Origin: Candidatus Nomurabacteria bacterium RIFCSPHIGHO2_12_FULL_42_19
Lineage (GTDB): Bacteria > Patescibacteriota > Minisyncoccia > Phycocordibacterales > UBA9973
Direction: 5' to 3'
Length of the DNA: 64,000 nucleotides
Assembly (NCBI GenBank): GCA_001786955.1
Contig: MFUM01000004.1
Span: 4,457 to 68,456 of the forward strand
How positions within the stretch are numbered: the stretch's first letter is position 1; each line of letters starts with the position of its first letter. The notes beneath the pieces were generated by a model that saw only the letters and a list, made by a program, of their open reading frames with translations, was not told where the DNA came from and ran no database searches. The position numbers and the translations under genes are program-made. Of this stretch, positions 44,819 to 47,014 are shown piece by piece.

Positions 44819-47014
44819 TTATAACATACTTAAAAATTCTTTCTCGCTTAATATTTTTACACCCAGCTTTTCGGCAACTTTAAGCTTGGAGCCCGGGTCC
44901 GCTCCGGCTACGATATAGGAAGTATTTTTTGAGACGGAACCCGCGACTTTCCCTCCGAGAGCCAGGATTCTTTCTTTAGCAATTTCTCGGGACATTTGGG
45001 AAAGCGTCCCGGTCAAAACGAAATGTAATTCGGTAAATTTGTCGGCTTTCTTTTTTTCCGCTCTTTCCACGATTACGCCATTTCTTTGCAATTTTTTTAT
45101 GAAATTCAAATTATTTTTATTATTAAAAAAATCATAAACGCTTTTTGATACAGCCGGGCCGATGTTTTCTATACTATCTATCTCAGCAAGGACTCCCCTT
45201 GCTGAAGTTATTAATTTTTCCAGAGTGCCAAAGTGTAGCGCTAAATCTCTTGCTGTTTCCTCCCCCACATGCAGGATTCCGAGCGCCCACAGAAAGCGTG
45301 AAAAAGGGATTTTCTTTTTATTTTTTATTTCATTGATTATGTTTTCCGCCGATTTTTCCCCAAAGCGTTCCAGGAGCGCTATATCTTCTTTTTTAAGGGT
45401 GAAAATGTCGGCTGCGTCGGTAATGAGCCCTTCGTCCTTGAATCTTCTCAGTATTTTCGGGCCTAATTCATAAATTTCAAAGACAGAAACAAAATGCTCT
45501 AAATACCTTTCGTTTTTTGCCGGGCATTTAGGATTGCTGCAATAATGAGCGACAGAGATATTCTCCAGCTCGCAAGATTTCTGAGTCGCGTAAGTCCCAC
45601 CCGGTACCCCGGGAAGGGTCAAGCGCGAAGAAATCTCGTGAGCCGAAGAATCCCCCATCTTTTTCTTCCTAACTTTTCCTCCGCAGGCCGGGCATTTGTC
45701 CGGCATTTTGAATTTTTTTTCTTTGCCTGTCCGCATCCGAATCAGCACCTCCACTACTTTCGGTATCACATCGCCGGCTTTTTCTATCACGACCGTATCC
45801 CCGATACGCAAATCAAGGCGCTCTATCTGGTCCATATTATGGAGAGTAGCCTTGGACACCCGGGAACCCGCCACCAGCGTCGGCTCAAAAAGAGCGAGCG
45901 GTGTCAATACACCGGTACGCCCGACATTTACCTTTATATCCTTTACTATTGTTGTCGCTCTTTCCGCCGGATATTTGAATGCCACCATAAAGCGCGGCGC
46001 CTTGCCGACCACCCCTAGTGTCTCCTGTAATTTCAAATCGTCCACCGAGACAACGACGCCGTCCGTGCCGTAGAGAAAATCGGGCCTGATTTTTTCAAAT
46101 TTCTTTATGAAAGTAAACACTTCATTCATATTAGCGCACAGAGCCTCCAATTTCTCAACTTTAAATCCAATCCTGCGGAGCATTTGATGTTTTTCGGAGT
46201 GGGTTTGCATAGCCGAATCATGAATTTTCTGAGTCGCGTAAGTCCCACCCCGTACTCGGGGAAGGGTCAAGCGCGAAGAAAATTCATGATTCGGCGTAGC
46301 CTCGGCTATATCGTAAGCAAAAAAATCCAATTCCCTTTTGGCGGCTAATTTTGGATCCAGCTGCCGCAAACTTCCTGCCGCGGCATTTCGGGTATTGGCA
46401 AAAAGGGGTTTTCCTTTTTTCTCATTTTCTTTATTCAATTTAACGAGCATTTCTTTGCTCAAAAGCGCTTCTCCGCGGATTTCCAGGTGCGGAAGGTATG
46501 GTTTTTGGAGAAGAAGTGGAATTGAATGTATGGTTTTGAGATTTTGGGTTATGTCTTCCCCAATTAATCCGTCTCCTCTCGTTGCGCCGCGCATAAACTT
46601 GCCATTTTCATAAACAAGCGAAACTGCCAACCCGTCAAACTTGACTTCGCAAAAATAATTAAATTTCGCGCGCGCAGGTAAAAGCTTTTTGATTCTTGTT
46701 TCCCACTCATATAATTCTGTCTCACTAAAAGCATCATTAAGAGAAAGCATGCGGGTTTTGTGCTGAACTTTTACAAATTTATTAAGCGGTTTGCCGGCTA
46801 CTCTGTTTTCCGGAGCATTTAAATCGTTAAATTCGGGGTATTTTTTCAAAAGCTCTTTAAGCTCGTGAGTGAGAGAATCGTAAACATCGTCGGTTACACC
46901 GGGGGCGTTTTGGGTATGATATAAATCACGCAAACGCGCGATTTCTTTTCGTAATTTTTTTACCCGCTTGGATTCGGCGAGGCTGGTTCTTTTTTTATCT
47001 TCCACCTCTTTCAT
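44819..47014 (-). CDS. ligA: NAD-dependent DNA ligase
   Basis: Adenylation domain, OB fold, zinc finger, HhH and C-terminal BRCT are present. Two copies of an 84-nt palindromic element sit in frame, one splitting the Cys4 zinc finger. Confidence 0.9.
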   Translation of the reverse strand: MKEVEDKKRTSLAESKRVKKLRKEIARLRDLYHTQNAPGVTDDVYDSLTHELKELLKKYPEFNDLNAPENRVAGKPLNKFVKVQHKTRMLSLNDAFSETELYEWETRIKKLLPARAKFNYFCEVKFDGLAVSLVYENGKFMRGATRGDGLIGEDITQNLKTIHSIPLLLQKPYLPHLEIRGEALLSKEMLVKLNKENEKKGKPLFANTRNAAAGSLRQLDPKLAAKRELDFFAYDIAEATPNHEFSSRLTLPRVRGGTYATQKIHDSAMQTHSEKHQMLRRIGFKVEKLEALCANMNEVFTFIKKFEKIRPDFLYGTDGVVVSVDDLKLQETLGVVGKAPRFMVAFKYPAERATTIVKDIKVNVGRTGVLTPLALFEPTLVAGSRVSKATLHNMDQIERLDLRIGDTVVIEKAGDVIPKVVEVLIRMRTGKEKKFKMPDKCPACGGKVRKKKMGDSSAHEISSRLTLPGVPGGTYATQKSCELENISVAHYCSNPKCPAKNERYLEHFVSVFEIYELGPKILRRFKDEGLITDAADIFTLKKEDIALLERFGEKSAENIINEIKNKKKIPFSRFLWALGILHVGEETARDLALHFGTLEKLITSARGVLAEIDSIENIGPAVSKSVYDFFNNKNNLNFIKKLQRNGVIVERAEKKKADKFTELHFVLTGTLSQMSREIAKERILALGGKVAGSVSKNTSYIVAGADPGSKLKVAEKLGVKILSEKEFLSML
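45575..45636. repeat. MITE-like palindromic element, family E copy 1, in frame in ligA (FSSRLTLPRVRGGTYATQK)
   Basis: Core ttctgagtcgcgtaagtcccacccggtaccccgggaagggtcaagcgcgaagaaatc with agatttct/agaaatct inverted ends. Confidence 0.6.
46212..46295. repeat. MITE-like palindromic element, family E copy 2 (84 nt, 16-bp perfect TIRs ccgaatcatgaatttt/aaaattcatgattcgg), in frame in ligA (EISSRLTLPGVPGGTYATQK)
   Basis: The core is nearly identical to copy 1. It lies between the first and second Cys pairs of the zinc finger. Confidence 0.65.

Follow-up and report, generated by a model that had tools for sequence, protein, structure and literature searches.

The ligA gene, encoding the NAD-dependent DNA ligase LigA, carries two related in-frame insertions in a 64,000-nucleotide stretch of the ultra-small Candidatus Nomurabacteria bacterium RIFCSPHIGHO2_12_FULL_42_19 (contig MFUM01000004.1, positions 4,457 to 68,456). 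The whole stretch is called the window here, and coordinates are in its own numbering unless another sequence is named. We consider it probable, with a chance of about 70%, that these insertions represent a low-copy, translated selfish palindrome that resembles the Rickettsia palindromic elements (RPEs) and is confined to permissive loops. Both segments would be copies of a non-autonomous selfish DNA element with a conserved GC-rich core and inverted arms, capable of forming a long DNA hairpin or cruciform, and the ligA family would be one of a larger group of palindromic elements that enter protein-coding genes in the Paceibacteria, which belong to the candidate phyla radiation (CPR).

We propose that the element moves rarely and by a hairpin-dependent route. 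In essential genes, only in-frame, stop-free insertions in disordered surface loops would persist; the conditions for survival would be a length that is a multiple of three, a stop-free frame and a surface loop that tolerates 25-35 extra disordered residues. The persisting copies would be transcribed and translated as passenger loops of the host protein. In LigA, the permissive loops would be the tip of the zinc-finger hairpin and a loop in the adenylation domain, and both hold the same family in this genome. The arms would stay complementary either because selection acts on the DNA hairpin or because template switching corrects quasipalindromes (PMC7202029).

Anatomy of the two ligA copies

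In the list of open reading frames (ORFs), ligA is one unbroken frame of 731 amino acids on the minus strand (44819-47014), and it is the host of both copies. Alignment of its product with E. coli LigA (2OWO) by HMMER (E = 6.6e-149) gives three blocks, query residues 17-237, 271-450 and 485-731 against E. coli residues 7-228, 238-417 and 420-669, and the two inserts lie between them. Copy 2 is an 84-nt (28-codon) palindromic element at 46212-46295 that is recognized by an inverted-repeat scan, by its fold energy and by a covariance-model match. It lies at residues 239-270, within an adenylation-domain (NTase) loop that falls between residues 228 and 238 of the E. coli enzyme, and its peptide (residues ~240-267) reads (T)PNHEFSSRLTLPRVRGGTYATQKIHDS(A), with the terminal G and C of the element finishing the flanking Thr and Ala codons. 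Copy 1 is an imperfect long hairpin of ~92 nt at 45560-45651, as judged from its fold, the covariance model and comparison with orthologs. It accounts for residues ~453-487 (GDSSAHEISSRLTLPGVPGGTYATQKSCELEN), between CPACGGKV/CPAC and CSNPKCP/CSNPKC, and it splits the Cys4 zinc finger. From the translation, the Cys441-x-x-Cys444 codons of the first half of the finger (CPAC) are at 45683-45694 and the Cys492 ... Cys497 codons of the second half (CSNPKC) are at 45524-45541, both on the minus strand. Cys441 and Cys444 align to C408 and C411 of E. coli LigA, an enzyme with 14 residues between the second and third zinc-finger cysteines. Because ligA is on the minus strand, copy 1, which has the lower coordinates, is the downstream copy in the protein. 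An earlier note on this DNA had stated that one copy splits the zinc finger, and the alignment to the E. coli enzyme bears this out; however, the note had exchanged the two sites, with copy 2 assigned to the finger and copy 1 placed between the OB and Zn regions.

The two segments are clearly repeats of each other. Each of the core 20-mers GAGTCGCGTAAGTCCCACCC and GGGAAGGGTCAAGCGCGAAG occurs exactly twice in the window, at 45583/46231 and 45611/46259, and neither was found in 100 dinucleotide-preserving shuffles, even when three mismatches were allowed. A repeat finder pairs 45578-45641 with 46226-46289 over 64 nt at 91% identity, and this alignment upholds the claim of two similar copies in frame in ligA. 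In the pairwise alignment the identity stops at the inner arms, and the central stem differs between copies 1 and 2 by a compensated swap of G-C to C-G. The two copies share a reading frame and give SSRLTLP(G/R)V(P/R)GGTYATQK, as had been reported; one example of an insert peptide from this LigA is LTLPGVPGGTYATQK.

The left arm of copy 2 (gccgaatcatgaattttct, 46212-46230) and its right arm (agaaaattcatgattcggc, 46277-46295), both from the inverted-repeat scan, form a perfect inverted repeat of 19 bp with a 46-nt spacer. The spacer is the conserved asymmetric core with its GC-rich apical stem (46231-46276), defined by the core matches and the fold. Thus, the 84-nt extent of copy 2 and the perfection of its terminal inverted repeats had been described correctly, and the arms, given as 16 bp, are longer. 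The core of copy 1 (gagtcgcgtaagtcccaccc ... gggaagggtcaagcgcgaag, 45583-45630), defined by the core 20-mer matches and the repeat finder, is the same core and is bounded by the inner arms agatttct/agaaatct, again in agreement with the note, and an imperfect stem runs outward from these to about 45560-45651. The core had been called palindromic; it is instead an imperfect asymmetric hairpin. The elements have a G+C content of 52-54%, compared to 41% for the window, and copy 2 has a fold energy of -58.4 kcal/mol per 100 nt, the mean for the window being -17.7. The covariance-model scores are 115.8 bits for copy 2 and 113.6 bits for copy 1.

The general anatomy was obtained from 14 distinct copies from 13 genomes, nine of which came from the DNA of further peptide-bearing LigA orthologs. 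All 14 fold as a single long hairpin with a conserved asymmetric core of ~46 nt, a GC-rich apical stem and arms of 17-24 bp, and the length of the element is 84-94 nt. The arms vary between copies yet stay Watson-Crick complementary. Standard pairs occupy 94.3% of the alignment cells, compared to 25-52% when the 3' partner is slid by 1-3 columns, and compensatory double changes occur in 17 of 28 pairs (14 of the 17 arm pairs), whereas the slid controls have 4-7. The true alignment has a covariation score of 0.393 and these controls have 0.03-0.07, and none of 500 shuffles reaches any of the observed measures.

Mismatches on the mRNA strand show no G.U bias (5 G.U and 11 A.C). The lack of a wobble strand bias, together with the presence of both orientations at the same LigA site (described below), favors a DNA palindrome over an RNA structure, and the occurrence of the element in the leucyl-tRNA synthetase (LeuRS) and in an untranslated 5S rRNA spacer argues for a DNA element rather than a ligase module. 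Three of the six frames of the element are open. Taken together, the wobble counts, the orientations and the open frames indicate a DNA palindrome and speak against an RNA structure as well as against a protein module. We infer that the palindrome is maintained at the DNA level, by hairpin-dependent mobility and/or template switching, and not at the RNA level.

As to the protein, an AlphaFold model of the window LigA was built on 65 orthologs. The confidence measure pLDDT falls below 50 only at residues 72-79, 242-267 and 453-487; the last two segments are the inserts, for which no secondary structure is predicted. The adenylation, OB, HhH and BRCT domains around them are modeled with confidence, and the model matches solved LigA structures. 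Both inserts are therefore predicted to be disordered loops on an otherwise intact ligase, which is what the structure prediction suggested in the earlier note has yielded. All four zinc cysteines and the lysine of the KxDG motif are invariant in the 65 orthologs. This conservation, along with the position of ligA as the sole ligase gene seen in the window, suggests that ligase function is retained, and the in-frame, stop-free reading suggests that the inserts are translated as part of LigA.

Related copies and turnover of the insertion sites

Outside the window, the exact core 20-mer is present at five public loci (two in genome_contigs and three in metagenome_contigs), which represent three distinct insertions; the search of public collections used the exact 20-mer only, and diverged copies lay outside its reach. 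One insertion (L003, identical to L004) is in ligA of another genome, with the copy at the same zinc-finger site. The second (L002, identical to L005) is in leuS of Candidatus Nomurabacteria RIFCSPLOWO2_01_FULL_39_18, where it is in frame as EKISSRFTLPGVPGGTYATQKSS; the inserts at the two LigA sites and in LeuRS encode SSR(F/L)TLPGVPGGTYATQK. The third, in a metagenome-assembled genome of the Minisyncoccia (L001), is an untranslated copy at 1352-1460 on the minus strand, 9 nt upstream of the 5S rRNA gene (1469-1575). This copy has AT-rich arms, and the order in the rRNA operon spacer is 23S - tRNA - element - 5S. Its place beside the 5S gene is such that it could act as, or disturb, a processing stem.

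The element also occurs in both orientations. In two LigA orthologs (L007/P0108 and L011/P0062), the core stands inverted at this same zinc-finger site, where its translation is S(E/S)(P/S)RKSHP...EGSS..K. The orientation of the element decides the peptide entirely, SSRFTLPGVPGGTYATQK in one case and SRKSHPVLGEGSSAKK in the other, and both are found at the same site.

The occupancy of the two LigA sites was followed in the 120 closest LigA proteins, which are 70-79% identical by BLASTP and whose source names are Paceibacteria, Nomurabacteria or Minisyncoccia. The adenylation-domain loop that holds copy 2 is called site A and the zinc finger that holds copy 1 is called site B. The length of these orthologs ranges from 667 to 784 amino acids, and the variation is almost wholly at a few positions, chiefly sites A and B. 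The insert lengths are bimodal: site A has 3-16 residues when empty and 19-43 when filled, and site B has 5-11 when empty and 19-64 when filled. Site A is filled in 48 orthologs and site B in 77; 33 have both sites filled and 28 have neither, so that 92 of the 120 have an insert at one or both sites. The ligA element family is at site B in at least 13 of the 120, plus three shortened variants, and because of this the zinc-finger insertion is not private to this genome. At site A, the family is found in this genome only and the closest orthologs are empty. The earlier note had asked whether LigA orthologs broadly share the peptide; this is partly so for the zinc-finger copy and not so for the adenylation-domain copy.

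Site B has no insert in 43 of the 120 orthologs, and many others hold unrelated families there. Examples of the insert peptide families are ISSRFTLPGVPGGTYATQK; KNSSAFLHPTGGTFR..; KNSAALPASGLRHGQNF; SSSSKGPRFSG..QTISHRT; TTPKPLLNKEGRK..SPPFEGGVPEGRGG; and NLAKNSPAFALGD.GQGTHD. Where the DNA of the other families was examined, it has the same design of arms and a GC core. All of the inserts in the 120 LigA orthologs, and in 120 PheS orthologs, keep the frame and contain no stop, and only open frames of the elements are used. Occupancy is patchy, and close relatives differ: P0018 and P0019, whose LigA proteins are 92.8% identical, have different families at site B, P0102 is empty there and P0014 has a third family. 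Several other orthologs (P0005, P0010, P0083, P0006 and P0007) have the same family at both sites, as is the case here, and some orthologs have tandem double inserts. Two further insertion hot spots in LigA, at query positions ~114 and ~170-172, have at least 8 residues in 22 of the 120 orthologs at each; an example is 'PHLSPSPLGRAGEGF' in P0052, and both spots are empty in the window LigA.

The sequence comparisons show that this patchy turnover is faster than the divergence of the host genes. The LigA proteins of L003 and L015 are 74% identical, and the element, including its arms, is 97.7% identical in nucleotides (93% at third positions) against 70.9% (48.5% at third positions) for the rest of ligA; the boundaries are sharp. 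The element of this pair is consequently either much younger or far more constrained than the host gene. For 55 pairs of site-B carriers, the mean identity is 84.5% for the core, 65% for the arms (range 38-88%), 71.2% for ligA and 45.9% for ligA third positions. The core is thus either under nucleotide-level constraint or repeatedly renewed, and the constraint cannot be on the protein because the two orientations give unrelated peptides.

Two ideas about the origin of the copies found no support. The first was that copy 2 derived from copy 1 inside the gene. The core of copy 2 is 93.5% identical to that of copy 1, 95% to that of L003 and 93.5% to those of L002 and L010, and so it is equally near to copies of other genomes, and the arms of copies 1 and 2 are 62% identical. 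The second was that the arms are made from the target at insertion, as an inverted target duplication; it was prompted by the likeness of the right arm to the native 'ELPSQK' codons at the zinc-finger site. However, the arms of copy 2 are ~79% identical to arms of the zinc-finger site (15 of 19 positions counted by eye, and 73.5% for L003 when both arms are taken) despite lying in a different loop, which implies that the arms travel with the element, and the inverted-target idea was dropped.

Similar hairpins are present in other genes. A fold-energy scan of the window finds strong GC-rich hairpins in frame in DnaG, RNase R, SMC, PheT, PheS, EF-Ts and the prepilin peptidase (PilD), and an inverted-repeat scan adds one in-frame palindrome, in TrmD, that is not GC-rich (0.42). 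The RNase R insert 'RFLPSLNKEGAGGGNSKDHPASGTPPKKGGEEQY' (25781-25880; gene 24954-27167, plus strand) and the PheS insert 'KEPPRPSGTPPQAGGEKNPPRLDKEGAGGGNSKS' (40781-40880; pheS 40281-41072, minus strand) are composite GC-rich hairpins in frame. Positions 25798-25829 of the former and 40782-40813 of the latter are 100% reverse-complementary over 32 nt, and this implies that one element family is present in the two genes in opposite orientations. The dnaG insert (14491-14560; gene 14214-15950) is GC-rich with a perfect 20-bp stem. The other GC-rich hairpins are at 30480-30540 in the smc-like gene (29101-31374), 39230-39280 in pheT (38413-40269), 8590-8650 in tsf (8399-9214) and 49545-49600 in the prepilin peptidase gene (49239-50063); the trmD palindrome is at 23908-23974 (gene 23502-24236). 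Positions 8605-8641 of the tsf insert and 49557-49593 of the prepilin peptidase insert are 89% complementary to each other.

The PheS orthologs have a single hot spot, around residue 68, that is filled in 40 of the 120 by the same families as in LigA. Likewise, the pheT gene of L004 (1344-3191, minus strand) has an 84-nt palindrome at 1627-1710 with perfect 22-bp arms that encodes 'TNEAQKNSLTLLQPSAGTFRLQNSSAPR'. This insert belongs to the KNS..LLxPxxGTFR family (here KNS..LLQPSAGTFR), which fills LigA sites A and B in many orthologs. Thus, the ligA case is one instance of a proteome-wide phenomenon in this clade. Two very strong intergenic hairpins of the window may be members of the same element population or terminators: one, at 52471-52520 between pilus genes, has a near-perfect 22-bp stem (CCACAGGTCGGACCTGTGGG..), and the other, at 33051-33150 upstream of a gene for a NusB-NUDIX fusion, is nested and GC-rich.

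A broader proposal, to which we give slightly less than an even chance, is that the Paceibacteria have an undescribed superfamily of translated palindromes, with a fixed GC-rich core and covarying arms, that re-home in either orientation into the same few tolerant loops of essential proteins, namely those in the zinc finger and adenylation domain of LigA and those in PheS, PheT, DnaG, SMC, RNase R and EF-Ts. They would be exchanged horizontally far faster than the host genes diverge and would be moved without target duplication by a transposase-poor route that depends on the hairpin, for example HUH-type transposition of single strands or uptake combined with template switching. Such a superfamily would correspond in CPR to the RPEs and would be a general cause of differences in length among CPR housekeeping proteins. 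In the literature searched, subscription journals being outside its scope, there is no earlier description of such elements in CPR, Patescibacteria or Parcubacteria.

Competing explanations and known systems

Several results weigh against a mobile selfish palindrome. No transposase or recombinase was detected by Pfam in 39 scanned ORFs of the window, the genes of which are all housekeeping or pilus genes (the ORFs of the pilus cluster at ~47-57 kb being identified from locus annotations, not Pfam), and no consistent target-site duplication was found across 17 insertions of several families. A covariance-model search of 221 kb (the window plus 157 kb of related contigs) found no copies beyond those in ligA, leuS and the 5S spacer. 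The 32-residue insert segment had no match at E <= 0.001 in 1.84 billion representatives, and a 42-residue concatenate of both orientations gave no candidate in the word index for other host proteins. With so low a copy number and so few loci, vertical inheritance of one old zinc-finger insertion could lie behind much of the distribution. In addition, the ortholog lists contain full-length proteins only, and frame-breaking insertions, which would point to removal at the RNA level, would escape them.

In one of the related contigs (L014), a large serine recombinase with Resolvase and Recombinase domains is encoded at 12113-13726 on the minus strand, directly downstream of ligA and overlapping its stop; no link to the palindromic elements was made.

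The closest counterpart of the proposed selfish palindrome is provided by the RPEs, which are several families of short palindromic selfish repeats that lie in frame in unrelated housekeeping and metabolic genes, are translated and are judged compatible with the protein fold, with some copies being intergenic (PMC10969869). The CPR element resembles them in being a palindromic repeat in frame in unrelated housekeeping genes with a conserved encoded peptide (two sites in LigA, and LeuRS), in its insertion at surface loops that are predicted to be fold-tolerant, and in having hosts with small, AT-rich genomes and a host-dependent lifestyle. However, it is found in an unrelated phylum, and we use the likeness as an analogy rather than as a claim of membership. 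It is also shorter (84-94 nt against about 100-150), its arms covary around a fixed core, both orientations are used at the same site, its loops are refilled by different families in close relatives, and the copy number per family appears to be low.

Other known systems share single features with the CPR element. In the REP/RAYT systems (repetitive extragenic palindromes and their transposases) and in IS200/IS605 elements such as IS608, the mobile unit is a DNA hairpin in which structure outweighs stem sequence, and there is no target duplication. REPs are extragenic, have 20-40 nt and carry a 5' GTAG motif at the foot of the stem. The CPR element would share the reliance on hairpin structure and has a short motif at the stem foot in several copies: a C[G/A][A/T]AG motif lies next to a GCCGG stem in these and is absent from many others. 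Unlike REPs, it is intragenic and 84-94 nt long, and no Y1/HUH (Y1_Tnp) transposase gene was found among the Pfam-scanned ORFs of the window. The PARCELs (palindromic amphipathic repeat coding elements) of Mollicutes (PMC2996958) are likewise palindromic DNA within ORFs that can be read in both orientations; however, they are tandem repeats of surface proteins, and the hosts and sequences differ. Mitochondrial coding palindromes and GC-rich hairpin elements (PMC6649704) are GC-rich hairpins tolerated in frame in AT-rich compact genomes, but both of their arms code for conserved protein, whereas the CPR element is a wholly extra loop. Finally, quasipalindrome template switching, a replication mechanism that turns imperfect inverted repeats perfect (PMC7202029), would give exactly the Watson-Crick covariation of the arms without selection. 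It is a mutational process and not an element family, and its role in the CPR elements is presumptive.

The most serious alternative, which we nevertheless regard as unlikely, is a classical MITE (miniature inverted-repeat transposable element), which would derive by deletion from an insertion sequence and have terminal inverted repeats to which a transposase binds in trans, with a target duplication of fixed length and many copies. Bacterial MITEs that fuse in frame (Correia, ERIC, BOX and others) are small and non-autonomous, have terminal inverted repeats and are sometimes intragenic (PMC10969869). The earlier note had called the element MITE-like, and this applies to a small hairpin repeat of 84-94 nt that has terminal inverted repeats, lies wholly within the ligA ORF without coding capacity or a transposase gene of its own, and whose mobility is supported by several genomic contexts, both orientations and the 98% versus 71% identity described above. 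Moreover, GCT[T/A]CG-like hexamers flank both sides of 4 of the 14 copies, all of the GCCGG type (window copy 2, the LeuRS copy L002, L012 and L013) and at three unrelated sites, as a target duplication might. However, these hexamers overlap the ends of the palindrome, lie within the 98% conserved L003/L015 block and are missing from the other copies and families; they look like parts of the element rather than a target duplication. The resemblance to a MITE is limited in other respects as well. The arms are the least conserved part of the element (65% against 84.5% for the core) and covary instead of being fixed, the copy number is very low (two in the 64 kb of the window, both in ligA, and none in the 157 kb of related contigs outside ligA, leuS and the 5S spacer), no transposase was found in the Pfam-scanned ORFs of the window, and two exact core patterns had no matches in viral contigs. 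MITEs have conserved terminal inverted repeats, defined target duplications and a recognizable parent insertion sequence; the arms of the CPR element are not conserved in this way, and neither a consistent target duplication nor a parent insertion sequence was found in the sequences covered here.

A second alternative is that an old, vertically inherited insertion was co-opted, for example to extend the zinc finger flexibly, to bind a partner as a loop or to regulate the mRNA as a stem that RNase III cuts, and that its core is kept by selection and not by recent movement. The presence of the family at the zinc-finger site in at least 13 of 120 orthologs and a core more conserved than ligA would suit this idea, and for the mRNA stem there is an RNase III gene in the window (31382-32110) and there are stems of 19-24 bp. 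What makes it improbable is that inversion changes the peptide completely at one and the same site, that orthologs empty at site B (43 of 120) or filled there with unrelated families are common, and that the same element is also found in LeuRS and an rRNA spacer. Disorder is predicted for both inserts, and G.U is not in excess over A.C on the mRNA strand.

Far less probable still is an intervening sequence that is removed after transcription or translation, either an intron-like hairpin or an intein-like peptide, to leave a normal mature zinc finger. One copy is indeed in an rRNA operon spacer, and bacterial rRNA is known to contain hairpin intervening sequences that RNase III removes. However, no mRNA re-ligation pathway for such hairpins is known in bacteria, and every insert in the 120 LigA and 120 PheS orthologs is in frame and stop-free. 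The Rfam search of the window at the gathering score found tRNAs only, and no intron or ribozyme matched at E up to 1; in this permissive scan of 45400-46500, the best values (E = 0.32 and E = 0.45) are for irrelevant eukaryotic families, and the match that overlaps copy 1 is MIR8007, with 19.6 bits against a gathering score of 195. As inteins, the inserts are too short (28-35 residues, when at least ~130 would be expected); they are rich in Gly, Pro, Ser and Thr and have no splicing motifs or Cys/Ser...His-Asn junctions.

An artefact of assembly or sequencing, for instance a chimeric product or one of read fold-back, is hardly credible: library artefacts can create palindromes, but 2 contigs and 6 member sequences have the same protein, and related copies are at the same codon positions in more than 13 independent assemblies (ENA, JGI, NCBI and Logan).

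Implications and other features of the window

If the selfish-palindrome explanation is correct, an enzyme essential for replication accommodates 32 extra residues between the two halves of its Cys4 zinc finger, and LigA has two natural permissive sites that would be useful for engineering. Such insertions would account for much of the unexplained variation in LigA length (667-784 residues) in CPR and, by extension, in other housekeeping proteins; this variation in protein length has consequences for annotation and alignment, and likewise for phylogenomics and structure prediction, in a very large uncultured group. The elements would also be a second independent case, after the RPEs of Rickettsia, of selfish DNA inside the coding sequences of reduced, host-dependent genomes. 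With hundreds of natural filled, empty and replaced alleles, the movement of the elements and the origin of new protein function are open to comparative genomics, and the Watson-Crick covariation of the arms offers a clean natural data set for distinguishing selection on a DNA hairpin from template-switch correction. The interest is chiefly that the LigA zinc finger and other essential proteins have been colonized recurrently throughout this very large group.

The window has some other features of note. Between a UvrD/AddA-like gene and ligA, the 5' half of tRNA-Ser(GGA), with the region of the anticodon stem, recurs as a truncated copy at 44365-44420; it is 88% identical over 33 nt and lies ~85 nt upstream of the intact gene (44452-44538). 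An integration or excision event at the tRNA may have left this copy as a scar. A motif of ~30 nt, TTGATTTTGCGAAATCA(C/T)G(T/C)C(A/G)CGCAA, is present in three copies near gene starts or ends (412-457, 4319-4364 and 63260-63305) and may be a shared promoter or operator. The ORF at 16127-16540 on the minus strand encodes a MazF/PemK-like toxin and overlaps the start of rpoC, and the NusB-NUDIX fusion mentioned above is encoded at 32079-33041, also on the minus strand.

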